Positions 11,283 to 64,000 of a stretch of 64,000 nucleotides of DNA are shown here, piece by piece. A program made the position numbers and the translations under genes. Below the pieces are notes generated by a model that worked only from the letters and a program-made list of their open reading frames with translations, had not been told where the DNA came from and searched no databases. Position 1 is the stretch's first letter. The number at the start of each line of letters is the position of its first letter. Source of the DNA: Thermodesulfobacteriota bacterium (GTDB lineage Bacteria > Desulfobacterota > Binatia > Bin18); NCBI GenBank assembly GCA_964291405.2, contig OZ219926.1:2784001-2848000 (forward strand), read 5' to 3'.

Positions 11283-11297
11283 GAAAGCCTCTACCAG

Positions 11298-12041: not shown

Positions 12042-12120
12042 TGTTTTTAACCTCTCCTGAGGCCCGACCCTTCCTGAACGCCGTGCGTTGCGGCAGTCCG
12101 CCGGTAGACGAGTCGGTAGC

Positions 12121-12972: not shown

Positions 12973-13117
12973 AGAAGGTCCCTCCCCGTGCATTATCATT
13001 CAGTCCCGAGCGCCCTGTAGTGGACAACCCCGGAACAATAATCGCACTGTACACAGAATAACATCCCCGTACCACATATCTTCCAAAATATGCAAACAGG
13101 GCTTTGAGTTCTGTCCC

Positions 13118-20700: not shown

Positions 20701-20974
20701 TAATTTGGGATAACCCTTCACGGGTGACCGACCGGAGCTCATCAATTCCACTGACCGTATTGATGGCTTCCTCAATGATCTTGGTCACCTGGGCCTCAAT
20801 CTCTTCCGGTCCGGCACCGGGCAGGGTGGTTGTCACCGTCACAACCGGCATTTCGACCTTAGGCATCAACTCCAAGGTGAGGCTGTTGTAGGAAAACCAG
20901 CCGGCCACCACGAGCACCCCAACCAGCATGGTGGCAAAGACGGGTCGGCGAACACACACGTCGGCAAGAATCAT
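17780..20974 (-). CDS. RND efflux permease (AcrB/AcrD/AcrF family)
   Basis: GIVIDDAIVVLEN, GIVKKNSIL and RLRPILMTT motifs; 1064 aa. Confidence 0.95.
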   Translation of the reverse strand: MILADVCVRRPVFATMLVGVLVVAGWFSYNSLTLELMPKVEMPVVTVTTTLPGAGPEEIEAQVTKIIEEAINTVSGIDELRSVTREGLSQIIVQFVLEKDLGIAAQEVRDKVGTVLADLPEDADPPIVEKFDIDATPIATVTVSGFRGLKELTEIAENQVKEPLESVTGVGAIDVLGGRKREIQILIDPDRLKAYGLAIRTVAQALAKQNVEFPGGRITQESGETVLRTLGRVKSVREFEDIVVATNDGVPITLADIGRVEDGVEEPRSLSRYDGKNAVSLIIRKQSGSNTVAAVEAVQERLVEVRQLLPPGVEALVTRDQSDFVKASVHEVQQHLILGSLFASIIVYFFLGNLRSTLIAAVAIPVSIISTYTLLAAAGYSLNRITLLGLTLAVGIVIDDAIVVLENIYRYIEEKGMNAFEAARAATAEVGLAVSATTLSLVVIFIPVGFLKGIVGMWLSSFGFTMAFAIMVSLLVAFTLTPMLCSRFLPKHLDEHVADHAHSSRESRFYRLIDRSYTAMLKWSMRHRWAIVCLTLGVFVSTPFIAGLVRPSLMASDDRGEFEINIKTPPGYSLAQTDAVTRQIEEEIHPLPGVNHLLTEIGSTVGESVTKSKIVVTLKHYSERDLHQSQVMDLAREKVQGFPNLRISVDQILPVSGGGIQNVDVSYNLRGPDLETLQQYSEDLKTRAQNMPGLRDVDSTFEGGNPELQVHLNRRKSSDLGIEAADIASTLRIMIAGEKITTYREGDELYDVRLRLTPESRNRPEVIQQVAVPSASVGQVILNNVVNMVPGTGPVQIDRQDRQRQITITGNLAKDKALGDAIADIDAEVEEMGLPLGYTTGVTGMGKMFEEMMESFQIAFLLSIIGMYMVLAAQFESFLHPITIMLSLPLAVPFALLALYIAGQHLALFAILGMLLLFGIVKKNSILQIDHTINLRAAGLPRDEAILQANKERLRPILMTTLALVAGMVPILIGQGPAAESHRGIAVVVIGGQSLCLLITLLVTPVAYSLFDDIEAWLGRTVPALRNLPRRLFRRRPVQASPPVPDPMPPPVPAQIKEEKAFGD

Positions 20975-20990
20975 ACGCTCTCCACAGGGC

Positions 20991-22148
20991 TTACTGGGAT
21001 TGGGATAAGGAGTCTATTGAGTCGGTTGAGTCCAAAGACCCAACGACTTCCTGGGTTTGCACGGTCATGCCGTCGGCCAGACGGTTGAGGGCGCTGACGG
21101 CGACCGTTTCTCCTTCAGCAAGTCCTTTGGCAATTTCTATCCAGTCCCCGTCCTCCATGCCGGAGGTGACCTCACGCGAGGTGATGACGTTATCCTCAAC
21201 GATAAAGATGCGCTCAACCCCGGCAAAACGCGCCAGGCCGGTGCGTGGAATAAAGAGGGCGTCTTCTTCGCCGAGCACGCCGGTAATACGCGCAAAATAG
21301 CCGGGACGGAGTTTCCCATCGGGATTGGGGATCTCGGCTTCAATTAGCAGGGAGCGCGTCCTGTGGTCCACCCGGGCGGCCATGCGGGTTAGGATTCCTT
21401 CAAATATCTGTCCAGGCAGCGCCTCGACTTCAACTCGGAGCGGCATGCCCGTCTCGGCCACCGCGGCAAAGCGTTCCGGCACAGGGGAACGCAGCTTGAG
21501 CGGGTTGACCACGACCAATTCAAGCAGGGATGATGCCGCCTCCTTGTACTCACCGGGATTGATAAAGCGTTCCTGGACAAAACCGTTGACTGGCGAAACA
21601 ATCCGGGTATCGCGCAGGCGTTTGCGCGCCAGAGCCAGGATCTTTTCCGCGGTACGGACCCGCGCCTCCATCACTTTATAGTCGGCCTCATTGGTATCCA
21701 GCCGTTGCTCGGGAATCAGGTTTTCCGCGGCCAACTCCTTGGCGCGGGTATATTCGGCCTGGGCGCGGATGAAGTTGGCTTCCGCCTGTTTGAGTGCGCT
21801 TTCCTGGACTTCAACCTCCAGGGCAAGCTCTTCCTGCTCCATCTCGGCCAGGAGCTGGCCCTTTTTTATTTTGTCACCAAAGTCAACATACACTTGCTGG
21901 ACGTAGCCCTCCTGCTTATTCGACAGAATGATGCTCTCTTTGGCGAATAACGCCCCCTGTCCCCGGCCGGTTCGCACTACGGTGCGTACGACTGGCTGGG
22001 CTACCTGAACGGTGAGAGGCGGGGGAGGGGCAGCAGCGGCTTGGTCTTGCGCTTTGGCCGCCTCCGAACTGGACGATTGACAACTCGGAAAGACGAGCAG
22101 GACCAACACCATATACACTTGGCCAAGAGGGAATAAGAAGGATTTCAC
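20991..22148 (-). CDS. RND periplasmic adaptor (MFP) lipoprotein
   Basis: Lipobox-like VFPSC, lipoyl/hairpin segments and NPDGKLRPG. Confidence 0.92.
   Translation of the reverse strand: MKSFLFPLGQVYMVLVLLVFPSCQSSSSEAAKAQDQAAAAPPPPLTVQVAQPVVRTVVRTGRGQGALFAKESIILSNKQEGYVQQVYVDFGDKIKKGQLLAEMEQEELALEVEVQESALKQAEANFIRAQAEYTRAKELAAENLIPEQRLDTNEADYKVMEARVRTAEKILALARKRLRDTRIVSPVNGFVQERFINPGEYKEAASSLLELVVVNPLKLRSPVPERFAAVAETGMPLRVEVEALPGQIFEGILTRMAARVDHRTRSLLIEAEIPNPDGKLRPGYFARITGVLGEEDALFIPRTGLARFAGVERIFIVEDNVITSREVTSGMEDGDWIEIAKGLAEGETVAVSALNRLADGMTVQTQEVVGSLDSTDSIDSLSQSQ
21010..21049. repeat. 9-bp-period GAGTC/GACCC repeat inside the MFP 3' end
   Basis: GAGTCTATT GAGTCGGTT GAGTCCAAA GACCCAAC; encodes the SLDSTDSIDS tail; same units as 27433-27529. 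Confidence 0.55.
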
Positions 22149-22795
22149 GATACTGGCTCCTCATGGTTCTGATGCTGATTCAGAACTCCGTTGAAAAACA
22201 AATCGAGCAAAATACCCGCGTCTTCGGTGGCTGGACGCGCCGTCAGCCCCAATGCCCGTTGCTGAAAGCAGCCACGAATCGCCTCGTTGAGGACAAAGGC
22301 CGAGGCTTCGACATTATGGGGCCGGAACACGCCCACGCGAACGCCGTCCTGGATGATTTCTTCGATAAAACGGATATGGGTCAGATACAGGTCGAGCATA
22401 TGCGCCGCTTCCGGATGATTGGGTGAAGCGGCCAGAAAGTTCCGCTCCAGCAGCAGGGTCTTGAAAAAATCGCGATAGGTATCGCTCAGTTCAAGGCTGA
22501 CTTCAATCAGACGTTGGAGCTTTTCAATCGGAGTCAGCGCCTGGGCGACTTGCGTGCGTACCTGACCGGTGAAATTCTGCATTCCTTGCTCAACAGCAGC
22601 GGTGAAGAGTTCATCCTTGTTCTGGAAATACAGATAGACGGTCCCCTTGGCGATCTCCGCCTCCTCAGCAACGCGCTCAACCGTGGCCCCCTGAAACCCG
22701 TGGCTCGCCACCACCCGGCACGTAGCATCCAGAATTTCGCGGATTCGAAACTCGCGGAGTACGTCTTCTTTTCTTGTGGCTGAACTTTTAGTCAT
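22145..22795 (-). CDS. TetR/AcrR-family regulator of the RND operon
   Basis: HTH motif ATVERVAEEAEIAKGTVYLYFQNKDELF; start re-called at ATG 22795. Confidence 0.92.
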   Translation of the reverse strand: MTKSSATRKEDVLREFRIREILDATCRVVASHGFQGATVERVAEEAEIAKGTVYLYFQNKDELFTAAVEQGMQNFTGQVRTQVAQALTPIEKLQRLIEVSLELSDTYRDFFKTLLLERNFLAASPNHPEAAHMLDLYLTHIRFIEEIIQDGVRVGVFRPHNVEASAFVLNEAIRGCFQQRALGLTARPATEDAGILLDLFFNGVLNQHQNHEEPVS

Positions 22796-22831
22796 ATGAC
22801 TGACTATACAGTCAGTATATGCAAAATGCAA
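22796..22831 (-). promoter_or_regulatory. Sigma70 promoter with overlapping palindromic operator; probable leaderless tetR mRNA
   Basis: TTGCAT (22826-22831), 17-bp spacer, TATAGT (22803-22808), 7 nt, ATG. Palindrome ACTGACT-N4-AGTCAGT at 22799-22816. Confidence 0.75.
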
Positions 22832-43127: not shown

Positions 43128-43853
43128 GCGCAGGCGGCCGGAGACAATCGCCTTGGTCGCCCGCTTTATGCCGTCCGAGTCATCAACGACCATCCACGGA
43201 CCCGAGTGAACAAAACTCTGTAGCGTTTCACCCCTGTGTATGAGCTGGGGATAGAGCTCGTGGGTTGTACTAAACGCGCGCCCCTCCGGCATATACTCAA
43301 AAATTCGTGGCTCCAACACCTGGCAGCCGGTAAACATGAACCGAGAAAGAGGTTCGTTGATCTCAATCTCGCTCGGCTCGCCTCGAATGCGCCGGACCGC
43401 GCCAGTCCGATCCGTTTCAATTAGGCCATACGTGGCCTCATTGGGATTCGATCTGAGCAGCAAGGTCCCAATGGCATGGGCCTGCTGGTGGGCGGCCAGG
43501 AAGGCGGTCAAATCGAAATCAAGGATCGTATCCGCATTCAAGACCAGAAACGGTTCACCGTCGAGAAACGGCTGGGCGTTCTTGATCCCGCCGCCAGTGT
43601 CCAGGATGGGGTCTTCCGGCGAATAGGTGATCCGCAGGCCGTAGGCACTTCCGTCGCCCAATGCGTCTCTGAGCAGATGCCCAAGATGGTGGAGGTTCAG
43701 CACGACCTCTTCGACGCCGTGGGATTTGACAAACAGGAGGGTGTATTCAATCAAGGGACGGCCGGCGACCGGCACCAGCGCTTTGGGAAGCGTATCCGTC
43801 AGCGGCCGCATCCGGGTCCCGAAGCCGGCCGCAAGAATCATGGCACGCATCAT
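43107..43853 (-). CDS. murU: Nucleotidyltransferase (MurU-like)
   Basis: AMILAAGFGTRMRPLTDTLPKAL and LDTGGGIKNA motifs; paired with an AmgK-like kinase. Confidence 0.8.
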   Translation of the reverse strand: MMRAMILAAGFGTRMRPLTDTLPKALVPVAGRPLIEYTLLFVKSHGVEEVVLNLHHLGHLLRDALGDGSAYGLRITYSPEDPILDTGGGIKNAQPFLDGEPFLVLNADTILDFDLTAFLAAHQQAHAIGTLLLRSNPNEATYGLIETDRTGAVRRIRGEPSEIEINEPLSRFMFTGCQVLEPRIFEYMPEGRAFSTTHELYPQLIHRGETLQSFVHSGPWMVVDDSDGIKRATKAIVSGRLRLSYLRP

Positions 43854-44931
43854 GAGCCGGAGAAGTGCTCTGGAAAATGCTCCGCCAGAATGTCTTGCAG
43901 GTACCGATACTGCGGCAGACGGCCCAACACCCGGCGGATCGTTGCCAGTGTCGGCGGAATATAGCGCGTATAGCCGCTCTTGCCTTTTTCCAGCTCCAGA
44001 TAATAGAAACGACCGACAACCTTACAGGCTTTTTGGAGCAGGCACAGATTATACTCGTCCCACACGTATTCCGGTGCCAGCGAGTCACCGCCAGTGTGGT
44101 GCCACGCCTCGTGGTAGTAATTGACCAGCGCCTCTTCCAACTCCGGGGAGACGACTTCCGGCGTATCCCGGTCATTGAGCAGCGTGGCGAGATCATAGGT
44201 GGCCGGGGCGAGCAGGGCATCCTGAAAATCGATCACCCGGATGTGCTCCTGCTGCACGAATAAATTCCAACTGTGGTAATCGCGGTGGTTGAGAAAAAAG
44301 GTGGCCTGGTCGAGACGGGTGGAGATATCCTCAAAGATGCCACTCAGGGCCTGTGGGTCTCTGTCGGAGAGAGGGACTGCTTGCCGCGCTTGTCCAGGCC
44401 CCACTCGACAAAGTGCTCGAATTCCCACAAGAAGAGGCGCTTATCAAAGCGCTGCTGAAAGGCAATGCACCGCTCGTTTTTCTGACGGGTGCCCTCGATC
44501 TGGATGAGCAGCAACTGGTCGATGGCACGCCGATACCACTGTTCCACCTCGGCTCGGGGCACGTCCTGGACGGCATCACGCAAGGGCAGGTCGCCAATGT
44601 CTTCCAGGAGGAGAAAACCATCCTGATAGCCATCCGCGTAGAGCTCTGGGATACTCACTCCTAGAGGCTCAAGAAAGGCGTGCACGTTGAGATAGGGCAG
44701 CTCCTTGAGGGGTTCGTCGAATACGGCGAGCTCGTCCGATGAGAGCGCGAGACCACTTCCGGCCAGAATCATGACAACCGCCGAGGCCGGGCTGTCACCG
44801 CTCAGAGACAGCCGAACATAACTCCGGCTTGAGGCGTCTCCAGCCAGTGGATCAATCCGCGTAATCTGAGTTTCTCGCCCCCACTTTTCAGCAACGGCAG
44901 CGTCAAGCGCCTGGCGTAGTGTCACATCCAT
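43850..44931 (-). CDS. amgK: AmgK-like anomeric sugar kinase (APH fold), frameshifted near 44355
   Basis: LAGDASSRSYVR and LLEDIGD in one frame; HRDYHSWNL, IDFQDA and YDLATLL in the next. Confidence 0.78.
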
Positions 44932-44941
44932 AGCTGACGAG

Positions 44942-44995
44942 AAAGAATGAACGTGTCCCGCTTTGATCGTGGTGGAAAGGACACGTTCATTCTTT
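44942..44995. repeat. 17-bp inverted-repeat element (variant arms)
   Basis: AAAGAATGAACGTGTCC-N20-GGACACGTTCATTCTTT; perfect pairing with compensatory changes. Confidence 0.85.
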
Positions 44996-45083
44996 GTAAC
45001 AATCGGGTGAGGACTTGTCAAAAATGAACGTCCAGCACCAGCTCTGCGTTGCAAATCGTCTACGCCTGTGATGGAAAAAAGCA

Positions 45084-51185: not shown

Positions 51186-51809
51186 ATGGCGGAGCATTCG
51201 GTCAAGACAACAGCCCTCCTTCCGTCCGACCACCGGCCGTTTAATTTTGCCCACCTCCTTACCAGCGTGCGACTCGTCCTGACCCCGGTGTTTCTCCTCG
51301 CTATTGAATGCAGCATACAGCAGCCAAGTCTGTTCCGCACGGGCTGTGTGGGTGGGCTCTTTGTGGTGATCTGCGCCAGCGATTACTATGACGGTCCGAT
51401 TGCCAGGGCGCTGGGCTTGAGTTCGGACTGGGGCAAGATACTCGATAATCTGGCGGATATCACCTTCCTGCTCGTGACCCTGACCTATTTGGCGTATAGC
51501 GGTATCGTGCCGTGGTGGATTCCGTGTGCGGTTGGCTGCGCCTTTGGCCAGTATACGCTTGACTCGTGGTGGCTCTCCAGACGAGACACGGCTATCGCGC
51601 TCGTGTCCAATCCCATCGGCCACTGGGCGGGTGTGCTGAATTATGTCGGCACCGGTCTGATGGCATGCCACGCCGCCCTCCAGCGGCAGCTTCTTCCCTT
51701 CCCTCTTGACCAGGCTGTGCTCTTCTTGTGGCTCGGCTATCTGTTACTGGCAATGGGCATGCGATTCCGGTTTTTTTGCCGTGCGCAACGGACGATTATT
51801 CACAACTAG
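51186..51809 (+). CDS. CDP-alcohol phosphatidyltransferase
   Basis: LLTSVR and SDYYDGPIARALGLSSDWGKILDNLAD signature. Confidence 0.85.
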   Translation: MAEHSVKTTALLPSDHRPFNFAHLLTSVRLVLTPVFLLAIECSIQQPSLFRTGCVGGLFVVICASDYYDGPIARALGLSSDWGKILDNLADITFLLVTLTYLAYSGIVPWWIPCAVGCAFGQYTLDSWWLSRRDTAIALVSNPIGHWAGVLNYVGTGLMACHAALQRQLLPFPLDQAVLFLWLGYLLLAMGMRFRFFCRAQRTIIHN

Positions 51810-52506: not shown

Positions 52507-54158
52507 ATGCCAATCAGATCACTCACACTGTTGTTTCCGGTAATCGTCGGCTGTCTCATCTCCTCTTGCTCCCTGACACCAAATCGAATGCCCCCGATTC
52601 TCGAAGCAGCGATGGAGTTACCCGACGAGTTTGCCGAAAGTGAAGTTGCCGGCTCATACGAGCCGCTGGAGTGGTGGAAGGCGTTCGCCGACCCGGTTCT
52701 CGACCAGGTCATCGAAGCGGTGCTGGCCTCGAACTTCGACCTCGCCGAGGCGGTCGCCCGGGTCGACCAGGCCAGGGCGCGGGAGCGTATCGTCAAAGCC
52801 CCGGCGTTTCCGCTGCTTCAGCCTTCGGTGGAGATCACCGATATGGAGACATCTACCAATGCGGGTATTGCCGCGTACCTGGACGAATTGGGGGTGGGTT
52901 CCGACGTATACCGCGATTTTGGCTTCGAGATTCCCGATCGGATCGGCCTGACGACCTACGACCTGGGTCTTGACATCTCCTACGAACTTGACTTCTGGGG
53001 CCGCAATCGCAACGACGCGCATGCCGCCGGTGCCGAGCGGCGGGCTTCGGAGTCGGACTACCTGACAGCCCGCATGGGGTGCTGGCCGAAACCGTGCGCA
53101 CCTACCTGGAGATCGTCGACCTGCGCCACCAACGGCGGCTGGCCGGCGAAGTCGTGGAAATCTTTCAGCAGCGGGAGTCCTTGGCCGAGTCTCGTTACGA
53201 CCGCGGGCTGACCGGTGCACGCGCCCTCTATACGGCGCGGCAGAACCTGAGCAACGCGCAAACCAGGGTGCCGCAAATCGAGGCGCTGTTGGCGGACGCG
53301 AAAGGCCGACTTTGGGTGCTCCTGGGGGGGTACCATGCGGACCTCGCGGGCATATTGCCCGATTCCCTGACGCCCTCCGCCGCGCTCGACCCGGTTCCGG
53401 CAGGCATTCCGGCCGACCTCCTGGCACAACGGCCTGACGTCAACGCGGCAAGGCAGCGGATGGAAGCAGCCCGCTACACCGTTGGCGCACGCCGCGCGGA
53501 TTTGCTGCCGAGCTTATCCCTGTACGGTTCCATCGGGCTGCAAAGTGCCGAGGCGGGCGAGTGGTTCGACCCGGATCAATGGTTCCGGAACCTGAGCTTC
53601 AACTTGCTTGGCCCCGCATTTCAAGGTTCACGGCTGCGCAGCAACGTTGATCTCGCCGAGGCCCGGTGGAATGAAGCTGCCGCCGCCTACGGGCGTTCCG
53701 TGGTCAGCGCGGTCAACGAAGTCGAGGCCGCCCTGGCGGGGCTGGAGGCCAACCGCCGCCGGCATTCCCTGCTGGCTTCCAGGACGCAAGAGGCTCAGGC
53801 CGAAACGGTGTTGCAGGAACGGCGTTATGCCTCCGGAGTAGGTAGCTATGAGGATTTCCTGACGGCGACGCACACCCTCCTGGGCGCGCAATCCGCGCTG
53901 GCAGCGGCGCAGCGTGACCTGGGGCACGCGCGTCTTGTCCTGCATCGCGCGCTGGGGGGCGCGTGGACTGCAAAGAGTAAACGTGTCCTCCAATCACACA
54001 AAAAAGCGGGACACGTTTACTCTTTCAACGAAGGGGAAGCCATCCAGCAGAGTAACCTAGCTCCTGACACCAAGGAGGGAACGTGTCCTTCCTCGACCGG
54101 CAGATGCGGGACACGGTCCCTCTTTCAACCGCGTCGGCTTGTGAGCGCCCCGGAGTAA
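52507..54158 (+). CDS. NodT/OprM-family outer membrane efflux lipoprotein, frameshifted at 53076-53079
   Basis: WWKAFADPVL, SYELDFWGR, PADLLAQRPDV and LHRALGGAW motifs. One extra G in the G4 run restores the frame. Confidence 0.85.
53972..54025. repeat. 17-bp inverted-repeat element (perfect)
   Basis: AAAGAGTAAACGTGTCC-N20-GGACACGTTTACTCTTT, read through by the OMF C-terminal tail. Confidence 0.88.
54073..54125. repeat. 17-bp inverted-repeat element (degenerate)
   Basis: AGGAGGGAACGTGTCC-N20-GGACACGGTCCCTCTTT. Confidence 0.75.
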
Positions 54159-54164
54159 ATCACC

Positions 54165-55379
54165 ATGTCCCGCATTTTCAGCTTTGTCATTGCCGGCGCC
54201 ATCCTCAGTGTTTCAGTGGCGTTGGCGGCTTTTCTCATTTCACTGGCACCCGAACCGACCCGCACTGAACCCCCGCCCCAGATCCCGTTCGCGCAGACGG
54301 AACTGGTTTCGGCCGGCACCGGTCCCATACCGGTCTACGGGTCCGGTACCGTGAGGCCGAGCGCTGAGATCGGTATCGCACCGCAGGTGGGGGGGAAAAT
54401 CGACTGGGTGGACCCGGGATTCCAGAGCGGGGGACGGGTAACGGCGGGCCAGACGCTCATCCGCATAGAAGAGGCGGACTTTCTGTACCGGGTGCGGGAA
54501 GCCGAGGCCAATCTCGCCGCCCGGCGGGTAGCCCTCCTTGAGGAGGAGGAAAAAGCCGAAATTGCCCGAGTCCAATACGAACTGTATATCGCCGGCCAGG
54601 GAGATGCGGATGCGACGTCAGCCGCGAATCCCCTCACGCTGAGAGAGCCTCAATTGAACGCGGCGCGTGCCGCAGTGAGCCGCGACGAGGCCCGGCTCGC
54701 TGAAGCCAATCTTGCCCTGTCCAGGACCCGGGTCACGGCACCGTTCGACGGCTTCGTACGCGAAGAATCCGTGGACGTGGGACAAGTCGTCGCCGTCGGC
54801 CAGACCGTCGGCCTGCTTTTCGCTGCGGAGGCCGTGGAGGTGGTCGTGCCCTTGTCCGATTCCGACGCGGCACTGATCGCGGGACTTTGGGATCTCAGGG
54901 CGGGTGACGGGGTGCGACGGGTGGCGGCCCGTGTGGTCGCCCAGTACGGGGACGGGAGCTACGCCTGGGAGGGGTATGTGGATCGGGGCGAGCTATCCCT
55001 GGACAAACAAACGCGAACGATAGACGTGATCGTGCGTGTACCCGAACCGTTTACAACTGGTGTCCGGACGGACGGCTCCGATGTTGTCGGTGAGCGCCCT
55101 CCCTTGCTGGTAGGCAAGTTCGTAGATGTGGAAATCCACGGCCATGAATTGGATGGATACTACCGGGTGCCGCGAGCGGCATTACAATCTGGCAACGAGG
55201 TTTGGATTGTGAATGATGGCGGCGTGGTGAGTATCGTTCCGGTACAGGTCCTACAACGGACCAACGACGAGGTATATGTGACCGGCACCCTTGAAAGCGG
55301 CCAGACCGTCATCACCGGTGGAATCCGGTTTGCCACAGAAGGCATGCGCGTCCTGACGGCAGCTGACCCGACACCATGA
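54165..55379 (+). CDS. RND periplasmic adaptor (MFP)
   Basis: APQVGGKI, LREPQL, TAPFDG and PLLVGKFV motifs. Confidence 0.9.
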   Translation: MSRIFSFVIAGAILSVSVALAAFLISLAPEPTRTEPPPQIPFAQTELVSAGTGPIPVYGSGTVRPSAEIGIAPQVGGKIDWVDPGFQSGGRVTAGQTLIRIEEADFLYRVREAEANLAARRVALLEEEEKAEIARVQYELYIAGQGDADATSAANPLTLREPQLNAARAAVSRDEARLAEANLALSRTRVTAPFDGFVREESVDVGQVVAVGQTVGLLFAAEAVEVVVPLSDSDAALIAGLWDLRAGDGVRRVAARVVAQYGDGSYAWEGYVDRGELSLDKQTRTIDVIVRVPEPFTTGVRTDGSDVVGERPPLLVGKFVDVEIHGHELDGYYRVPRAALQSGNEVWIVNDGGVVSIVPVQVLQRTNDEVYVTGTLESGQTVITGGIRFATEGMRVLTAADPTP

Positions 55380-58300
55380 GTCCTGACAACGGCCCTCACA
55401 CGGAACCATCCGGCCCGATCGCCTACATGGCTGGCAACAGTGTCGCTGCCAATCTGTTGATGTGGGCCATCATCGCCGCCGGGCTGGTGTCACTGACCGG
55501 TCTGGAGCGCGAAGCGTGGCCCACGGTCCCATTCTACCATGTCGAAGTTTCAATGCCCTATCCCGGCGCCACCCCGGAAGAGGTGGAGGAGTCGATCATC
55601 GCCAAGATCGAGGACCAGGTCAGCGGGTTGGATGATGTCAAGGCGGTCAAGTCCGTCGCGGCCCCAGGTATGGCATCCGTGCGTATTCAAATGGATTCCC
55701 GTACGGACATGGATCGAGCGTTGGACGATATCGAGTCTGCCGTCAATCGTATAGAGTCTTTCCCGGCTGGTGCCGACCGTCCCCAATTCAGGGAGATGAC
55801 CAACCGCCAGAGCATGATGCGGCTCATCGTGTATGGCGATGTGCCCGAGCGCTCGCTCAAGGAATTGGCGTACCAGATCGAGGACGAACTCACGACACTT
55901 CCCTCCGTGTCCCAGGTCGAGGTCAGTGGTGTTCGGAAATACGAGATCTCTATCGAGGTACCGCTGCATCGGCTGAGAGCCCTTGGACTGACACTCCCCG
56001 GCATCGCCACCACGATTCATCGCAGTTCCCTGGACCTTTCTGCCGGCAGTATCGATACCAGGGAATCCCAGGTGCGGGTCCGGACCCTCGGCCAGAACTA
56101 TGACCAACAGGATTTCGAAGAGATCGTCCTTCTCAGCGGCAGTGACGGCACGGTATTGCGCCTCGGCGACATCGCCGAGGTCCGCGACGGTTTTCAGGAA
56201 ACCGACCTGATTGTCCGGCACCAGAACCATCCCGCCGTATTCGTCGAAGTCTACCGGGCCGATGATGAGCACGTGATGGATGTCGCCACGACCGTCCGAG
56301 AGCACCTGACGAACGAGGTGGTCCCGGCTCTGCCGGACGGTGTGGGCATCACCATCTGGAATGACGAATCCCAGGCCTATGAGGAACGCGCCGCTCTTCT
56401 CCTCAAGAACGGAGTTCTGGGCCTGTTGCTGGTGTTGATCGCCCTGAGCTTGTTTCTCGAAATTCGGCTCGCCCTGTGGGTCGCCGCCGGCATCGCCATT
56501 TCGGGTATCGGCACCCTGGCCGCCATGCTGGTACTCGACTATGCAATCAACACCATCAGCCTGTTTTCGTTTGTCCTCGCCATCGGTATTGTCGTCGACG
56601 ACGCGATCGTCGTAGCCGAGCACATTCAAGTACGAACGCAAGCGGGGAACACCCGGAGTCGCGGCGGCGATCCGCGGCGTCACGTCGGATCAAAGTGCCG
56701 TTGACATTCGCGGTGCTCACTTCGGTGGTGGCGTTCGTCCCACTACTATTTATCCCTGGTGGCGTCGGTAAGGTATGGGAGGCACTGCCGGTCATCATGA
56801 TCGCCATGCTGCTGGTTTCTCTGGTCGAATCGCTGTTCGTGTTGCCCAACCACCTATCCCACCTTCCCGGCCCGGACTGGGTGCCGACCAGCGCCTTCGA
56901 TCGGTTCTTCGCACGGATTCAGAGTTGTGTAAACGAATTGCTGAACAAGTTCGTACAAGGCCCCTTGGGTCGGGCGCTACAGTTTGCGACGGACCAGCCT
57001 GCGGTGACGATGGCGGGGGCAGTGGGAATGCTCATATTAAGTATCTCTCTGTTACCGGCGGGTATCGTCCCTACCACATTGGCCGCTGACGTCGAGGGGG
57101 ATTTCGCAACGGTCACTCTGGACATGCCCGATGGGACGACCGCGCCGAGGACATACGAGGTGGCGAAGGAACTGGAGGCCGCGGGCCACCGGGTCATCGA
57201 ACGACTGTCGCGCGGCCGACCCGAGGATGCACCTCCGTTGCTGACCGGCGTCACGGTGACCGTCGGACAGGGGCCGAGACTTGAGGGTGGGGGACTGAAT
57301 CCCGAGCCCACCCTCAATCCGCGGGCCAATATCGCCACCATCGAATTCAAACTCCTGGGCGCACAGCAGAGACAGCTCTCCACCAGAGAGGTCGTGCAGG
57401 CATGGCGCGAGGAGGTGGGAGTGCTGCCCTACGTGCGCGGTATCACCTTCAGCGGCGAGCTCATCGACCTGGGCAATCCGGTCGAGGCCGTGCTGTCGCA
57501 TCCTGACCCGGAGCGCCTCGCCCAGATCGCAGACTCCGTGGTCGATGGTCTCCGTGGAGTGAGAGGCATCTACGACATCCGTTCGGATCACACCCCAGGC
57601 ATCCCGGAAATACAGCTCGAACTGCGGCCGGAAGCGCGGACCCTGGGTCTCACGCTTGAAGAGTTGGCCGGGCAGACGCGCGCCGCATTTTTTGGAGCAG
57701 AGGCCGTCCGGGTGCAACGCGGCCGGGAAGAGGTCCGGGTCTACGTGCGTCTGCCCGCCGATGAGCGGAATGCCATCACCGATGTCGAAGGATATCTGCT
57801 CCGTACGCCGAGCGGGGCCGAGGTCCCGGTTACCAGTGTGGCCGTGCTGAACCCAGGCGTATCGCCGCCGGCCGTTCGACGGAGGGATGGTCAGCGCGTC
57901 GTCACGGTCACGGCGGACGTGGACCCCACGGTGATTTCCGGCGACGAAGCCAACAGCATTCTGACCAATTCGATCCTCGCGGACTTGACCGCCGTGTACC
58001 CGGACCTGACATACACGTTTGGAGGTGAACAACAAGAGCAACTCGAGTCCGTAGGTGCGCTGTATCGCGGGTTTGCGATTGCCTTACTCATGATTTTCGT
58101 GCTGCTCGCCATCCCCCTACGCTCCTATACCAAACCGTTCATCATCATGGCCGTTCTCCCGTTCGGGTTCATCGGCGTGATCCTGGGTCACTGGGTCCTG
58201 GGAGTAGCCCTGAGCGCAGTATCCTTTATGGGTATCTTCGGCCTCAGCGGCGTGGCTGTGAACGATTCCCTCGTCATGATCGATTTCATCGATCAGAAAC

Positions 58301-58614
58301 TCAGAGAAGGGGTCCCGATGCGCACGGCAATCATAGAGGGTGCTAAAGGGCGCTTTCGTCCGATCATGCTCACTTCCGTGACGACTTTCCTGGGCTTCAC
58401 CCCTCTCATTCTGGAACGCTCCATTCAGGCCCAGTTCCTGATCCCCTTTGCCGCGTCGCTCGGTTTCGGCATTCTCTTCACCACGGCCATCCTTATGATG
58501 GTCGTTCCGGCGTTATACGCGATCCAATTCCGGCTGATTTCTTCGCGTGGTAATTCTGGTGTCCCCGACACCTCGGTACACGCCCGATCCGCGAGCGAGA
58601 GCCTGCACGCGTAA
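55376..58614 (+). CDS. RND efflux permease, with two +1 indels (about 56630 and 56682)
   Basis: GIVVDDAIVVAE, VNDSLVM and RFRPIMLTS motifs. An intermediate frame reads YERKRGTPGVAAAIRGV and links the two ORFs. Confidence 0.88.
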
Positions 58615-58759
58615 GCAAGCGTACGAACTCTGGACTGTAGACGATGTTCCTACTGAAGGACATTTTTCTACAGTTTTGCTATACAAGCGATCAGGCGCTG
58701 TGTATCTTCCATCAGAGACTCCTTAAAAAGTGCGCACAATGGAGGTGACACCCTTGGAA

Positions 58760-60754
58760 ATGAGGACTCTGAGCTTCGCTGAAGACTTTTGTTTGCTGAT
58801 GTTTGACGACGCCTCCGGAGGCCTCTGCCCGCTCCGGGGGCGAACGATGGACTTCGGTTTGGCGGCCGCCGTCCTGTTGGAGTTGGCTCAGCACAATCGT
58901 ATCGAGACCAAGCCCAACAGTCTCTCTGTGGTCGATGCATCGCCGATTGGCGATCCCGTGGCGGACCCGGTGCTGGCCCAGGTCGCGTCGAGCGGACGGT
59001 CCGGCTCTCCGGAATACTGGGTACAGCGCATAGGGCTTCAGTCGGGCTCGCAGATAGCCGAGGCCAGCTTGGATCGGCTCGTAGAGCGCGGAATCCTGGA
59101 GCGGATCACGGGTGGCCTCTTCTTCCTCACCTCTGAGGTGGCACGTTCGCGACGCTACCCCAGGGCAACAGGCCGCGGCGCGGACGAAGTCCGCGTCCGG
59201 GTGATGCGGACACTCTTCAGCGGCGAGGCTCCGGACCCTTGGGATGCTGATCTGATAGGGCTCGCCGAGGCCTGCGGTGTCTTCAGGCTTATCCTGAGCG
59301 CGGCCGAGTTCGACAACGTGAGAGGTCGAGTCGAGAAGATGCGGCCGCCTAACCCGCTCTGCCACGCCGCTCAGCAGGTAGCCGCTGACGATTTGGCCAC
59401 GCAAGAGCCTTCGCGCCGAGAATTCAAGCCGATACCGGAGGTGCCGGGACTGCCGATCCTCGGCAATGCCCTGGGCATGAGCGGCGACCTGCAGGCATAC
59501 CTCGACGGGCTGTACAAACAGTACGGGCCGATTTTCAGTCTTCGAGCGCCTGGCCTCCGGGTAGTAGTCATGGGAGGCAAGGAGGCGATAGCGTTCGCGA
59601 TGAGGTATTCGCAGACGCACCTGCGTAGCAACCGGTCGTTCGCCGTCTTCTGCGAGGCGATGGAGACCGACCGGTCGATCATCTCCATGGACGGTCACGA
59701 TCATATCAAACTCCGGCGCCTCGCCCACGCCGGCTACGCCAGGATGACGGTCACGGACAACTTGGCGACGATCATCGACGTCGCCCGTCGCGTCGTTGCG
59801 TCCTGGCCCGTCGCCCAACCCCTTTCGGTCTATCCGGCAATGCAGGAGATTGCGATTCCGCAACTCGGAACTGTTGCAACCGGGCTCGCGCCGACTGAAT
59901 TCGTCGACGATCTCAGGTACTGGTTCGACTCGCTCGTCATCGCCATGCGTCAGGATCGGCCGAAGTTCATGCGTGACTACCGGTTGCGAAAGGTGCGTCC
60001 CAGAATCAAGGAACTCTTTCGCCAAGCCGTGGAACTACACGATCCGCAGCGTCGCGAGGGGTGTCCCCGCGATCTGATCGATGAGTTCCTGGAGTTGCAC
60101 AGGCGCGATCCGCAGTTCCTCCCGGAGACCGATCTCATCTCCTCGGTGGTCGCCCCATACATCCAGGCCCTGGACCCCATCGCCGGCACCCTGGGGTTCG
60201 CTTTGCTTCGCTTGCTGGCAGAACCACGGTACGCCGAAATACTCCAAAACGAGGCGGATGAAGCGTTTGCCTCGGGGCTGGCCGATGCCGACGACATTCA
60301 CGGACTGGATATGACATACGCGTTCCTTGCCGAGGTCATGCGCTGCCGCACCATCACGCCGATCATCCTGCGCACGGCGTGTAACTCCTTCGAGTTCGAG
60401 GGTCACTGGGTACCCGCCGGTACGCCGCTGTGGCTGGCTCCGGGGGTGGTCCACAACGACCCGGACTACTACCCGAACCCCGACCGATTCGAACCCGAGC
60501 GGCACTTGCCGCCACGGCTCGAATCCCAGCAGAAGGGCGCTTTCGTTCCCTTTGGAATCGGTCCGCATTCCTGCCTCGGAGATTCATTTTCCAGAGATCA
60601 GATGGCGGTGACGCTGGCCACGCTTCTGCACTGTGCCGAATTCGGCCGCTATCCGGTTGGAGACAGTCGCGTGAGAATCACCTCATACCCGTCGCTCCGT
60701 CCGCACGGCAAGTGCCGCATTCAGATAAAGCGTCACCGGCTCGCCGCTCAGTAA
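58760..60754 (+). CDS. GPP34 (GOLPH3/Vps74-like) domain-cytochrome P450 fusion 1
   Basis: N-terminus LSFAEDFCLL..AAAVLLELA..GDPVADPVL..LDRLVERGIL (GPP34-like). C-terminus PGLPILGN, EVMR (ExxR), FEPER and FGIGPHSCLG (heme Cys). Confidence 0.85.
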   Translation: MRTLSFAEDFCLLMFDDASGGLCPLRGRTMDFGLAAAVLLELAQHNRIETKPNSLSVVDASPIGDPVADPVLAQVASSGRSGSPEYWVQRIGLQSGSQIAEASLDRLVERGILERITGGLFFLTSEVARSRRYPRATGRGADEVRVRVMRTLFSGEAPDPWDADLIGLAEACGVFRLILSAAEFDNVRGRVEKMRPPNPLCHAAQQVAADDLATQEPSRREFKPIPEVPGLPILGNALGMSGDLQAYLDGLYKQYGPIFSLRAPGLRVVVMGGKEAIAFAMRYSQTHLRSNRSFAVFCEAMETDRSIISMDGHDHIKLRRLAHAGYARMTVTDNLATIIDVARRVVASWPVAQPLSVYPAMQEIAIPQLGTVATGLAPTEFVDDLRYWFDSLVIAMRQDRPKFMRDYRLRKVRPRIKELFRQAVELHDPQRREGCPRDLIDEFLELHRRDPQFLPETDLISSVVAPYIQALDPIAGTLGFALLRLLAEPRYAEILQNEADEAFASGLADADDIHGLDMTYAFLAEVMRCRTITPIILRTACNSFEFEGHWVPAGTPLWLAPGVVHNDPDYYPNPDRFEPERHLPPRLESQQKGAFVPFGIGPHSCLGDSFSRDQMAVTLATLLHCAEFGRYPVGDSRVRITSYPSLRPHGKCRIQIKRHRLAAQ

Positions 60755-60957
60755 AGTCCCCATCGACGCGAGTTTCTCTTGCCCGGGAACGAGTGTCAAC
60801 GGTGGCAGGATTAGGAGTTGAACTACTCCGGCTTTCGGCCGAGCACAGAGTACATTGGCGTGAATATCCCCAACCGGTCGGATTCTGCAGACACTACCAA
60901 GATAAGACTTGTCCCTCCCTAAACCGGAGAGCTATAATACAGCAAGGGCGAAGACCT

Positions 60958-62982
60958 ATGACTGTTACTCAAGAGGGTGCGACAACCCAACCCCTAACTT
61001 TGACCCAAGAACTCATCCTGATGCTCCTCAACGAGGAGACCGGCTACTTCCACCAAGTGCCCGGCTGGGATCTGAACTGCGCCGTGATCGGTGCCGTGCT
61101 CGCGGAGCTTTCCCTCAGACGTCGCATTGACACGGATGAGGAATCCCTGTTCCTTGTGGACGGGACGGAAACGGGCAACCCCGTTCTGGACCCCATCCTG
61201 AAGGAAATTGCAGCTGAACCGGTTCAACGGAACACCCAGTACTGGATCGAACGGCTCGCTCCCCGTGCGGAGTCGATCATTGATGCGGTTCTGGATCGCT
61301 TGGTTGAGCTAAAGGTCCTGGAACACCACGAAGGCGGGTTCTATACGCTGGCTCGCGCTGCCTGGCAGACGGAAGTGTTCGACAGCTCCTCAGAAGGCAC
61401 GGCGATTCAATTCGTCAAGACGCGCATCAGCAATGCAATTTTCAACAATGATATCCCTGACCCGAGAGATATCATCATTATCTGTCTCATCAACACGTGC
61501 GACGTCTTTCGCTTCATGTTTCAACTTGATGACGAGGCAGAGGAGCGCATCGAGTTCATCTGCAAGATGGATTTGATCGGCCGGTCCATCGCTGCTGCGG
61601 TCTCCCACAACCTTGCCGGCCCGCTGCTTCGACATTCCGCCCTGACTAAGAAGATTCCGGCTGTCTCCCTGAGCAAGTTGCTGTTCAATCCCCATATTCG
61701 CAGCGGCAATATTCCCGCGCTCTTTGCGGATCTTACGCAAGAGTACGGCCCGGTATTTGAAATCCGTCCTCCGTTTGCCGAGCCCATGATTTTCCTGGCC
61801 GGGCCACGGACAAACCGCTGGGTACATCGGCACGGGCGGATGTACCTGAGGGCCAAGGACTATTTTGCCGACTTCGAGAAAGTCTACGGTGCGTCTGGCG
61901 TACTCCCTTCCCTGGATGGCGCCGATCATTTCCGGCTTCGCAAGGCGATGGGGCCGGCCTATTCACGCGGGAGACTGGGAGGTCAGTTGGACCAGGTCTA
62001 CCATTATGCTCGTAAATATATGGCGGATTGGACGGTTGGAGACTCCCTCTCTGCAACGCGCCTGTGCCGACGCATGATTAACGCGCAAATCTCACCTCTC
62101 CACCTCAGCGTTGACTCGCAAGATATCATCGACGATCTAGTCGTCTACAAGGAACGAGCGCTCAACACCCACATCCTAAAAGCCCTGCCCAAATTCATGC
62201 TGAAAACCCCAGGGATGAGCCGCCGGGCAAAAATTATCGACACCTTGCTGGAACGGGTCCAGGGGGTCCACACGCCGGCCCAGCGGTCCGGATGTCCGCG
62301 GGACCTTGCGGATGACTGGTTAAGCCTGCACGCGAGCGATCCGCAATTGATGCCGGAGTCGAATCTGCGTTTCGCTCTTTCAGTCGCGCTGGTTGCCAGC
62401 GTCTACCTTGGCGATGCGTTCAGCTTCGCTTTGTACGCCATGGCGTCACAACCGGCGCTCTACTCCAAAATCCAAAGTGAGGCCGATGCCCTGTTCGATA
62501 ACGGTGATCCGGAGGGCGAGGACTTCACCCCAGCCGCAATCGACGTCACGCACCGCTTCCTCATAGAGTGCCTACGCATGTATCCGATTGTCCCGATGTC
62601 TGTACGAACCGTGATGAATTCGTGCGTGGTCGAGGGCTACGAACTACCGGTGGGGTCACAGCTCTACATTGCCCAGACAGCCGCGCATTATATGGACGAC
62701 GTCTTCCCTGACCCCTTCTCTTTCGATATCGACCGCTATCTGCCTCCGCGTAATGAGCACCTCAGTTCCGGGTACGCACCCTACGGGCTGGGTACGCACA
62801 CCTGTCTGGGCTCCCGATGGATGGACCTGCAACTGGCCGTCAATGTGCTTATGGTTGCGCACTACTTTACGCTCAAGGTCCCCACGAACTACAAGTTCCG
62901 GTTCAGCCCGTTGCCGTCAATGAAACCGAGCAAGAAGCTGAAATTCCACATCACCGAACAGAGGCGCGACTTGCCCGTCTGA
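60958..62982 (+). CDS. GPP34 (GOLPH3/Vps74-like) domain-cytochrome P450 fusion 2
   Basis: LTLTQELILMLLNEETG..GAVLAELSL..TGNPVLDPIL..LDRLVELKVL, then ECLR, FDIDR and YGLGTHTCLG. Start re-called at ATG 60958. Confidence 0.85.
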   Translation: MTVTQEGATTQPLTLTQELILMLLNEETGYFHQVPGWDLNCAVIGAVLAELSLRRRIDTDEESLFLVDGTETGNPVLDPILKEIAAEPVQRNTQYWIERLAPRAESIIDAVLDRLVELKVLEHHEGGFYTLARAAWQTEVFDSSSEGTAIQFVKTRISNAIFNNDIPDPRDIIIICLINTCDVFRFMFQLDDEAEERIEFICKMDLIGRSIAAAVSHNLAGPLLRHSALTKKIPAVSLSKLLFNPHIRSGNIPALFADLTQEYGPVFEIRPPFAEPMIFLAGPRTNRWVHRHGRMYLRAKDYFADFEKVYGASGVLPSLDGADHFRLRKAMGPAYSRGRLGGQLDQVYHYARKYMADWTVGDSLSATRLCRRMINAQISPLHLSVDSQDIIDDLVVYKERALNTHILKALPKFMLKTPGMSRRAKIIDTLLERVQGVHTPAQRSGCPRDLADDWLSLHASDPQLMPESNLRFALSVALVASVYLGDAFSFALYAMASQPALYSKIQSEADALFDNGDPEGEDFTPAAIDVTHRFLIECLRMYPIVPMSVRTVMNSCVVEGYELPVGSQLYIAQTAAHYMDDVFPDPFSFDIDRYLPPRNEHLSSGYAPYGLGTHTCLGSRWMDLQLAVNVLMVAHYFTLKVPTNYKFRFSPLPSMKPSKKLKFHITEQRRDLPV

Positions 62983-63004
62983 CAAATCGAACCAGGACGT
63001 TGGG

Positions 63005-64000
63005 ATGACCCTACCCGTTGTCCGATTCGCGGCGATTGAGGGTCTCGTGCTCGAGGCGGCGGCCATGCTGTTGGTGTTTGTCGGCGTTTTGTTTCTGGGT
63101 TCTATACTCCTGCCCGGCCGTCGGGTTGCAGGGCCGGATCTCGAGGGAAAATCACGCACCTACAAGCTCAACGGCCTCGCCTTGTTCCTGATTGTCGTGA
63201 TGGTGGCATGCCTCGCCCAAGTCTCCGGCTGGTTCTCACTTTCCGTGCTGCATACCCACTTTGCCGCTTTGTTCGTGGTGGCAAACGGATTCGCATTTGC
63301 TCTTTCCGGCTGGCTGTATTGCCGTGGAGCCTGGGCCGGAGAGGCATCACCAGGAGTCTGGCGAGGATTTTTCTTTGGCTCGGAGCTCAGTCCGACCTGG
63401 CTCGGGGTGGACTTGAAGCTTTTCAGCTACCGCCCTTCCCTCATCGCCCTGGCACTGTTCAACGCATCGTTTGCCGTCGTGCAGTACGAAACCTACGGCG
63501 GGCTGACCCTGGCCATGGCGCTCTATCAGATCTTCACCTTCTTGTACGTGCTCAACTACTTCCAGTTCGAATACGGGATGACCCACACCTGGGACATGGT
63601 CAGTGAGCGCTTCGGGTGGATGTTGATTTGGGGCGACTATGTGCTGGTGCCGTTCTTCTATAGCCTCGCGGGCTGGTGGCTGGTTCACGCAACGGAACCG
63701 CTGTCTCCCATGGCCGCCGGCGCGCTCGTCTTGTTGTTCGCCTTTGGCTTCTGGCTCTTTCGCGGCGCCAACGAGCAAAAGCACCGCTTCAAGCATGACC
63801 CTGCGGTCACGATTTGGGGACAACCCGCCCGGTCCCTGGACGGGCGCCTGCTGGTCTCCGGATTTTGGGGTATTGGACGACATCTCAACTATACCGGCGA
63901 GGTCTGCGTCTACCTCGCGTTCACCCTGACCACTGGACTCGCCTCCTGGGTGCCATACCTGTTACCCGCGTGGCTGGCGGGTCTGTTGTGGCATCGATCG
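63005..64000 (+). CDS. ERG24/ERG4/DHCR7-family sterol reductase (Delta14-reductase-like), runs off the window end
   Basis: Open frame from ATG 63005, absent from the ORF track: YKLNGL, FFGSELSP, DLKLF, TWDMVSERFGWMLIWGD, RGANEQKHRFK, LLVSGFWGIGRHLNYTGE and HR motifs. Confidence 0.9.
   Translation, partial: MTLPVVRFAAIEGLVLEAAAMLLVFVGVLFLGSILLPGRRVAGPDLEGKSRTYKLNGLALFLIVVMVACLAQVSGWFSLSVLHTHFAALFVVANGFAFALSGWLYCRGAWAGEASPGVWRGFFFGSELSPTWLGVDLKLFSYRPSLIALALFNASFAVVQYETYGGLTLAMALYQIFTFLYVLNYFQFEYGMTHTWDMVSERFGWMLIWGDYVLVPFFYSLAGWWLVHATEPLSPMAAGALVLLFAFGFWLFRGANEQKHRFKHDPAVTIWGQPARSLDGRLLVSGFWGIGRHLNYTGEVCVYLAFTLTTGLASWVPYLLPAWLAGLLWHRS

Follow-up and report, generated by a model that had tools for sequence, protein, structure and literature searches.

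We analysed a stretch of 64,000 nucleotides (the window; G000:C3:2784001-2848000, contig OZ219926.1) from the genome of a Thermodesulfobacteriota bacterium of the class Binatia (4.95 Mb, 3 contigs, 97.5% complete). The end of the window and the sequence that follows it hold a gene island of about 23 kb, from window position 52507 to window-equivalent 75722, in which the genes of a sterol pathway stand together with those of an RND pump and with two fusions of a GPP34 domain and a cytochrome P450. The six genes in the window represent the first quarter of the island; the others were read in two 20-kb regions of the same genome (L001 and L002), a window coordinate being the L001 coordinate plus 51999. 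An earlier note on this DNA had described the six as co-oriented (outer-membrane factor OMF, membrane-fusion protein MFP, RND permease, two GPP34-P450 fusions and an ERG24-type reductase) and the cluster as running on past the window. Both statements hold: the listing of open reading frames (ORFs) and the Pfam matches place all six on the + strand, and the reductase gene, which stops at window-equivalent 64096, is followed by CYP51, a fusion of squalene epoxidase and oxidosqualene cyclase (SE::OSC) and further genes.

The assignment of these genes to a sterol pathway is well supported by gene content. The reductase (63005-64096, + strand, 363 aa) starts 22 nt past the second fusion, as the note had it (gap 62983-63004), and belongs to the ERG4/ERG24 family (Pfam ERG4_ERG24, E 1e-69; E 3e-53 for the part inside the window, 63005-64000). 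It aligns with the delta(14)-sterol reductase of PDB 4quv over residues 30-363 against 86-427 (E 1.9e-65). Both of its PDB matches are delta(14)-sterol reductases and the gene adjoins CYP51; by sequence it is most like a delta14-sterol reductase. The paper on 8,14-Bsr (PMC13277303) deals, as far as its accessible text goes, with a different reductase and has no bearing on this one. The gene lies directly upstream of CYP51 and SE::OSC, and this order of reductase, CYP51 and cyclase is the one described for sponge symbionts in the text of PMC9531527. The CYP51 gene, between reductase and SE::OSC on the + strand, matches the Methylococcus enzyme (PDB 7jj1/6mcw, E 1.7e-103); with it, the island holds both a C-14 demethylase and a C-14 reductase.

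The CYP51 stop is overlapped by the ATG of the SE::OSC gene, which codes for a protein of 1133 aa (L001:13512-16913, window-equivalent 65511-68912, + strand). Its N-terminal half is a squalene epoxidase (Pfam SE, E 7e-21, with FAD_binding_3) and the other half an oxidosqualene cyclase (SQHop_cyclase_N and SQHop_cyclase_C, E 1e-50 to 6e-55) that scores 725 bits on TIGR03463 osq_cycl (strict cut-off 851) against 270 bits on hopene_cyclase. The fusion is common, both domains being found in the best 120 of 821 relatives (E <= 1e-30), which measure 1107-1168 aa; a literature search gave no paper on a squalene epoxidase::oxidosqualene cyclase fusion. Directly after the cyclase, a four-helix membrane protein of 245 aa is encoded on the + strand (L001:16904-17644, window-equivalent 68903-69643), the 336-aa ORF listed for it overlapping the OSC. 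It is conserved in three other loci (L046, L044 and L070, 55-93% identity). Pfam gave no match for it at E 10 and a PDB profile search only noise; in the protein-language-model Atlas, 22 of its 30 matches fall in one set, with PF05241 in 20% of the members of its top-listed cluster (score 0.92). EBP, of the sterol delta8-delta7 isomerase family, is a weak lead for this protein.

Past the four-helix gene, the - strand carries in succession a sterol methyltransferase (SMT, Sterol_MT_C), an SdmA-like Rieske oxygenase (NF052579, 410 bits, E 6e-123) and an SdmB-like reductase (NF052578, 310 bits, E 3e-92), the last two scoring under the equivalog cut-off of 600. The earlier note had proposed to look downstream for oxidosqualene cyclase, squalene epoxidase or sterol methyltransferase; all three were found within 8 kb of the window end, along with CYP51 and SdmA/SdmB. 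Beyond SdmB lie a gene for an FAD flavoprotein of amine-oxidase fold (+ strand), whose nearest solved relative is LkcE (E 2e-20), and, beyond it, one for a KshA-like Rieske oxygenase (- strand), whose nearest solved relative is 3-ketosteroid 9alpha-hydroxylase (E 7e-23). The latter has 1897 relatives at E <= 1e-20, and none of the 120 listed is named by function. Elsewhere in the genome we found two SQS_PSY genes, which could supply squalene, a second ERG4_ERG24 gene and a separate squalene-hopene cyclase.

Two further groups of genes were observed around the island. In the stretch L002:4564-7642 (window-equivalent 76563-79641), 0.84 kb beyond the Rieske gene, a P450 with a match to PDB 9wat (E 8.5e-165) is followed by thiolase-like and DUF35/ChsH2-type genes, a YbaK-like gene separating them from the island. 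PDB 9wat is CYP204A3, described as a bacterial steroid side-chain cleavage enzyme (PMC12808266). The CYP204-type P450 and the thiolase and DUF35 genes may serve to cleave sterol side chains, and in other loci they are not conserved beside the fusion-and-pump cassette. Far upstream, at window 9972-12999 on the - strand, three copper membrane monooxygenase genes (AmoC/PmoC, AmoA and subunit B by Pfam) lie amid many luciferase-like monooxygenase and acyl-CoA dehydrogenase genes, a neighbourhood that suggests hydrocarbon or ammonia oxidation.

The GPP34-P450 fusions and the pump operon

Fusion 1 (58730-60754, + strand; Pfam GPP34 E 6e-34, p450 E 4e-48) and fusion 2 (60958-62982, + strand; GPP34 E 8e-29, p450 E 8e-32) are both 674 aa long, with a GOLPH3-like domain at the N-terminus and a cytochrome P450 at the C-terminus. 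Fusion 2 starts at the ATG at 60958, the listed ORF start at 60430 being an upstream extension without domains. The two are tandem paralogues with 29% identity over 666 aa. Fusion 1 has the heme cysteine motif FGIGPHSCLG and the ExxR motif, fusion 2 likewise keeps ExxR and the heme cysteine, and all 76 aligned fusions have this cysteine. Both proteins thus have GPP34 and a P450 with its heme cysteine in one polypeptide, the GPP34_L architecture, and a protein search gave at least 92 clusters of such GPP34+P450 proteins. A third P450 of the fusion family, at G000:C3:3017493-3019142, shares 34% identity with fusion 2 over residues 253-669. Immediately before it, in a different open frame, is a weak trace of GPP34 (24 bits), and the pair may derive from a third fusion gene that is broken or was assembled wrongly. 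The genome also has one short GPP34 gene elsewhere.

The P450 domain of fusion 1 aligns over its whole length with the island CYP51 (23% identity, 455 aa, E 3e-17), and its best full-domain PDB matches include CYP51 (E 3e-23) and the steroid side-chain-cleaving CYP204A3. The alignment of fusion 2 with the island CYP51 spans only 111 aa. In the protein search, the nearest unfused relative of the GPP34-P450 proteins is labelled sterol 14-demethylase (26% identity, E 4e-17). P450s are placed in one family by a 40% identity rule, a level that neither fusion reaches with CYP51. The fusions also differ from it in the I-helix, and a true CYP51 lies 1 kb downstream of them; they are therefore CYP51 relatives and not CYP51 itself.

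The conserved I-helix threonine of P450s is normally oxygen-activating. In the alignment of 76 full-length fusions, all 32 rows of one clade, clade C (see below), and no others lack one residue where the I-helix acid stands and have a tyrosine instead of the threonine. Fusion 1 and its two nearest orthologues have a proline at the threonine position. The atypical I-helix of clade C, to which fusion 2 belongs, hints at non-standard chemistry.

Upstream of the fusions, the adjoining OMF, MFP and RND genes form a tripartite set. The OMF, of NodT/OEP type (52507-54158, + strand), is listed as two ORFs, 52507-53211 and 53079-54158, each matched by Pfam OEP. The ORF listing and a reading of the frames indicate a 1-nt frameshift near 53075 in the window sequence; its orthologues in other loci are in a single frame, the one in L078 reaching 282 bits on TIGR01845 outer_NodT. 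The MFP, a periplasmic adaptor (54165-55379, + strand; Pfam HlyD_3 and HlyD_D23), scores 151 bits on NCBIfam TIGR01730 RND_mfp (cut-off 94.9), and its stop overlaps the start of the RND gene by 4 nt. The RND inner-membrane permease (55376-58614, + strand) covers Pfam ACR_tran profile positions 9-413 and 421-1019 of 1021 and is listed as ORFs 55376-56704 and 56476-58614; a three-frame reading locates two 1-nt frameshifts about 55 nt apart, near 56628-56630 and 56679-56682. It represents a divergent subfamily, outside the HAE1-type multidrug RND permeases: its intact L069 orthologue obtains 408 bits on NF033617 RND_permease_2 and does not reach the cut-off of 1250.

The frameshifts were checked on Logan contigs from four public runs (X1, X2, X9 and X20) aligned over the region. 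Contigs of X1, X2 and X9 have one added base after 53075 (L001:1076), at full depth there, and those of X1 and X2 are one base shorter at each of the two RND positions. By frame arithmetic the three changes together bring the OMF and the RND exactly back into frame. The X1 contig with both RND corrections has a depth of 34.7 and a 2578-nt X1 contig spanning fusion 1, with one differing letter, a depth of 34.3; in view of these nearly equal depths the two probably come from the same organism. Because the frameshifts are missing from independent contigs, the pump is probably intact, and the frameshifts would be consensus errors of the assembly or a rare variant. Another such assembly frameshift may be present at 43850-45054 (- strand), where, of two overlapping ORFs, the downstream one covers the profile of the APH phosphotransferase family only towards its C-terminus (positions 138-234 of 239).

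The window contains a second set of pump genes at 17780-22831 on the - strand, with an intact RND of 1064 aa (ACR_tran, E 4e-269), an adaptor and a regulator of TetR type. This set resembles an ordinary efflux operon, unlike the divergent pump that is linked to sterol genes. A CDP-alcohol phosphatidyltransferase gene (51186-51809) lies 0.7 kb upstream of the pump operon; its relevance would depend on the GPP34 domain recognising the head group of a phospholipid.

Conservation and distribution

The feature is real and conserved. One genome per species was scanned, giving at least 562 relatives among at least 601 stretches, and the 79 best loci, each with its 10-kb flanks, were searched by tblastn with the island proteins. 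Matches were obtained for RND in 24-25 of the 79 loci, OMF in 19, MFP in 15, the KshA-like Rieske in 17, the flavoprotein in 10, SMT in 8, OSC in 4 and SE in 3. A FastTree phylogeny of 76 full-length fusions, from which ten loci with P450-only, truncated or frameshifted matches were left out, has three clades with a support of 100 each: A, with fusion 1; B, generic; and C, with fusion 2. Within 10 kb, a part of the pump is present in 23 of the 29 clade C loci (RND 21, OMF 17, MFP 14) against 1 of the 32 clade B loci, the KshA-like Rieske in 15 against 1, the flavoprotein in 10 against 0, SMT in 6 against 2, and OSC or SE in 1 against 3. At least one of pump, Rieske or flavoprotein accompanies the fusion in 27 of the 29 clade C loci, and the same families come out on top of an unbiased clustering of all ORFs (30 clade C loci). 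L080, in clade C, holds only an unrelated RND (27% identity). All seven SMT-like neighbours tested contain Sterol_MT_C.

According to their record titles, the clade C loci belong to Acidobacteriota, Gemmatimonadota, Chloroflexota, Binatota and Pseudomonadota. The conservation of the cluster, which the earlier note had left to be examined, is therefore seen as a linkage of GPP34-P450 and pump across five phyla. Over these loci the flavoprotein is 79-93% and the RND 61-77% identical, and the pump proteins are 56-77% identical across phyla; such high identities fit recent horizontal spread. Horizontal transfer is also reported for core sterol genes in the text of Kelly et al. 2022 (PMC9531527). 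L046, the locus closest in synteny and by its record title also from Binatia, repeats the junction between the fusion-and-pump cassette and the sterol genes with 86-95% protein identity, and in both genomes the genes of the cassette interleave with the biosynthetic ones, the flavoprotein and the Rieske lying beyond SdmB. In a Dehalococcoidia genome (L003), both fusion paralogues, the flavoprotein, the Rieske and SMT lie on a small second replicon, a record of 144,742 bases titled 'chromosome: 2', and the island cyclase as query found no cyclase in this genome; the replicon may be a mobile carrier of the cassette.

The cyclase half of SE::OSC was also used to search the 15 genomes behind cassette loci (E <= 1e-20). 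An OSC orthologue with 69-86% identity is present in eight of them, mostly distant from the cassette, and in seven of these eight the open frame is 1144-1346 aa long, which means that the cyclase is fused to the epoxidase. Two genomes have only a hopene-cyclase-like match and five have no cyclase match with this query, a non-match being no proof of absence; three of these five possess Sterol_MT_C and four ERG4_ERG24. By these searches the cassette is tied to sterol enzymes and not strictly to sterol synthesis.

In 200 sampled genomes of the same phylum no OSC orthologue was found, and a GPP34-P450 was found in one, a genome of the same genus (35% identity). Several island genes lie above the 95th percentile of the G + C content of the genome. 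The rarity in the phylum and the raised G + C content point to acquisition by transfer. As to habitat, parts of the stretch occur in runs that are recorded as sponge metagenomes, in line with the sponge bias that the note had thought worth checking. Contigs of X20, a sponge metatranscriptome, are 92-99% alike on parts of the pump, the reductase, CYP51, SMT and SdmA with many differing letters; we rejected them as evidence of expression, since they come from relatives and the library may hold DNA. X20 and X9 leave parts of fusion 1 without cover, and nothing follows from this gap.

Proposed pathway and alternative readings

The locus is probably a de novo sterol pathway joined to a tailoring and export cassette, in a sponge-associated bacterium. 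In the first unit, an oxygen-dependent de novo pathway, SE::OSC would form the first sterol, CYP51 and the ERG24-type reductase would remove the C-14 methyl group and saturate the resulting double bond, SdmA and SdmB would carry out the C-4 demethylation, and SMT would alkylate the side chain. The second unit would be a horizontally mobile cassette common to sponge symbionts of several phyla, composed of a clade C GPP34-P450 (here plus its clade A paralogue), the KshA-like Rieske, the LkcE-like flavoprotein and the OMF-MFP-RND pump. The P450 fusions would be cytoplasmic and act at the membrane's inner face, with GPP34 as a module for docking to the membrane or to a partner and not as a reader of phosphatidylinositol 4-phosphate (PI4P). 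Oxidation or desaturation of the sterol would fall to the Rieske enzyme, the flavoprotein and the P450 domain related to CYP51. From the periplasm or the inner membrane, the pump would bring the product to the outer membrane or outside the cell, possibly to the host. Gene content, family membership, conserved linkage, the lost PI4P pocket and the atypical clade C I-helix are observed; we infer on which substrate and by which reactions the enzymes act and which way the pump transports, and the roles given to the fusions, the Rieske, the flavoprotein and the pump are likewise proposed from linkage and distant homology. The module for making or remodelling sterol-like lipids and exporting them that the earlier note had suggested thus finds support in its sterol genes, whereas export and the P450 chemistry stay conditional.

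Several observations weigh against this reading. Every function has been assigned by homology or gene neighbourhood, and SdmA, SdmB and OSC score under the strict equivalog or subfamily cut-offs of NCBIfam. In the tblastn search of the 10-kb flanks ERG24 was found in none of the 79 loci, and OSC or SE lies within 10 kb in only one of the 29 of clade C; a long distance separates cassette and OSC in most genomes (in G001, for example, they lie at 3.58 Mb and 2.35 Mb). Seven of the 15 genomes have no OSC orthologue by the island query, and the cassette is therefore not dependent on de novo synthesis. The clustering of clade C loci showed no ferredoxin or reductase gene conserved with the cassette, except that seven related loci from gammaproteobacteria have a BenC-like reductase. 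The acid-alcohol pair found in ordinary oxygen-activating P450s is missing in clade C, which therefore may not be a plain hydroxylase. Finally, both the OMF and the RND are frameshifted in the window assembly (three frameshifts in total), and the RND orthologue falls far under the NCBIfam multidrug cut-off, so that the substrate class is not fixed by family.

Some of these points would be expected if the cassette remodels, or detoxifies and expels, sterols or other hydrophobic metabolites of the host sponge, its adjacency to the pathway reflecting the building of an island by horizontal transfer and no shared pathway. We hold this to be unlikely. The genomes without an OSC orthologue, above all the five without any cyclase match, are in its favour, as SMT and reductase domains in most of these five represent sterol modification without a route of synthesis; so are the lack of linkage between cassette and OSC in most genomes, the nearby CYP204-type P450, related to an enzyme of steroid degraders and followed by thiolase and DUF35 genes, the scarcity of OSC and fusion in the 200 genomes of the phylum, and the raised G + C content of parts of the island. 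However, cassette and biosynthetic genes are interleaved both here and in L046, with only 22 nt between fusion 2 and the reductase; OSC is present in eight of the 15 genomes, and a query without a match in a record does not prove absence. As OSC is found in only these eight and SMT or the reductase is kept in most of the others, host sterols are a likely alternative substrate. The host-sterol explanation and the joined pathway and cassette that we favour are compatible with each other.

According to the published reading, GPP34-P450 proteins are PI4P-binding effectors released by the symbionts, which disturb the maturation of the host phagosome; the neighbouring genes would then be irrelevant. 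For this locus we consider it very improbable. The fusion, GPP34_L, is reported only in sponge symbionts as far as the text of that study goes (Microbiome 2025;13:4, PMC11706023), sponge-metagenome runs hold parts of the stretch, and the GPP34 domain is truly related to GOLPH3 and Vps74: a single-sequence query had no PDB match, and a profile query alone finds the two at E about 1e-9 (3kn1, E 8.7e-10). GOLPH3 is described as binding PI4P through R90, W81, R171 and R174, with R90L abolishing the binding (PMC3596250). However, by a low-identity profile alignment that is well supported around R90, three of these four residues are missing from all 76 fusions: the W81 column has no Trp (Pro in 54), the R90 column no Arg (Ala in 67) and the R171 column no Arg (Asp or Glu in 58), and Arg stands in only 29 rows of the R174 column. 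By eye, no hydrophobic leader is seen at either N-terminus, both fusions beginning directly with the GPP34 domain. The missing residues, the lack of a visible leader and the operon context therefore weigh against a secreted PI4P binder. Moreover, reducing partners in the cytoplasm are required by a P450 whose heme cysteine is invariant, clade C goes together with the pump and with enzymes of sterol type, and the words sterol, steroid and efflux are missing from the main text of PMC11706023.

It is also highly unlikely that the pump is an ordinary or decaying multidrug efflux operon placed by chance beside unrelated P450 genes, as its three frameshifts in the window and the second, intact RND-MFP-TetR set (a sign that RND pumps are common here) might suggest, given its linkage to clade C and not to clade B, its sequence conservation across phyla, and the absence of the frameshifts from contigs of X1, X2 and X9, with matching X1 depths for RND and fusion 1.

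Relation to described systems and significance

The bacteria Methylococcus capsulatus and Enhygromyxa salina reportedly have sterol pathways with C-4 demethylation by SdmA/SdmB and with CYP51. The present locus shares with them the SdmA-like Rieske, the SdmB-like reductase, the Methylococcus-like CYP51 and a MaSR1-like reductase; it differs in having squalene epoxidase and cyclase in one 1133-aa protein, in its extra oxidases and pump, and in belonging to an uncultured, host-associated organism. An RND-superfamily transporter in a sterol producer, assigned to the movement of sterols through the envelope, is also described for M. capsulatus in the BstA-BstB-BstC system (eLife 2024, PMC10942540). 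Here, by contrast, the set is a classical tripartite OMF-MFP-RND one, and BstB-like or BstC-like genes were not seen in the locus by Pfam, no Bst sequence being used as query.

Closest are the clusters known from sponge symbionts: ERG24-CYP51-LSS clusters ('CSGs'), Binatia included (Kelly et al. 2022, PMC9531527), and SMT and sdmAB clusters (Brown et al. 2023, PMC10070321). As far as the texts of these papers go, they share with our locus the order of reductase, CYP51 and cyclase, SMT and sdmA/sdmB nearby, Binatia among the classes, and horizontal transfer, whereas the core is here joined to an RND pump, two GPP34-P450 fusions, a KshA-like Rieske and a flavoprotein. The terms RND, efflux and Rieske do not occur in either main text, nor 'P450' in that of Brown 2023 or 'Golgi' in that of Kelly 2022; the supplements may show neighbours. 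With GPP34_L of PMC11706023, to which both window proteins belong, the two-domain architecture, the length of about 660-680 aa and the range of phyla are shared. There these proteins are proposed to bind PI4P and to control phagocytosis, whereas here the PI4P residues are missing and the family divides into three clades, one of them tied to a pump and sterol-type enzymes. The earlier note had called the system undescribed. This does not apply to the sterol clusters, published in 2022 and 2023, or to the fusion, published in 2025; in a limited literature search confined to main texts, we found no paper linking the GPP34-P450 fusion or an RND pump to sponge-symbiont sterol clusters, or these two to each other. 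The present analysis adds the direct junction with a complete pathway, the tandem paralogous fusions, the I-helix marker of clade C, the retention of SMT and reductase in cyclase-free genomes and the neighbouring CYP204-type gene.

The oldest chemical evidence adduced for animals consists of steranes with unusual side chains. Here a full de novo sterol pathway directly adjoins a proposed cassette for tailoring and export that passes between phyla; this is relevant to the question of which organisms produce the odd sterols of marine sponges, and if it is true that sponge symbionts make, tailor and export sterols, the sterane argument for animals would be weaker. We regard it as possible, if rather doubtful, that the clade C P450s, the KshA-like Rieske and the flavoprotein form a non-canonical class of sterol-transforming enzymes whose products the pump feeds to the sponge, that part of the unusual oxidised and alkylated 'sponge' sterols, including biomarker precursors, are made or finished by bacteria from their own or host sterol, and that GPP34 is a bacterial module for handling sterols or membranes and not a PI4P reader borrowed from eukaryotes. 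The locus offers candidate sterol enzymes for biochemistry, namely the atypical P450, the KshA-like Rieske, the LkcE-like flavoprotein and the four-helix membrane protein, and it suggests a different, testable function for the GPP34-P450 proteins, which few other known bacterial proteins match in sponge specificity and which at present are interpreted as effectors that manipulate the host.

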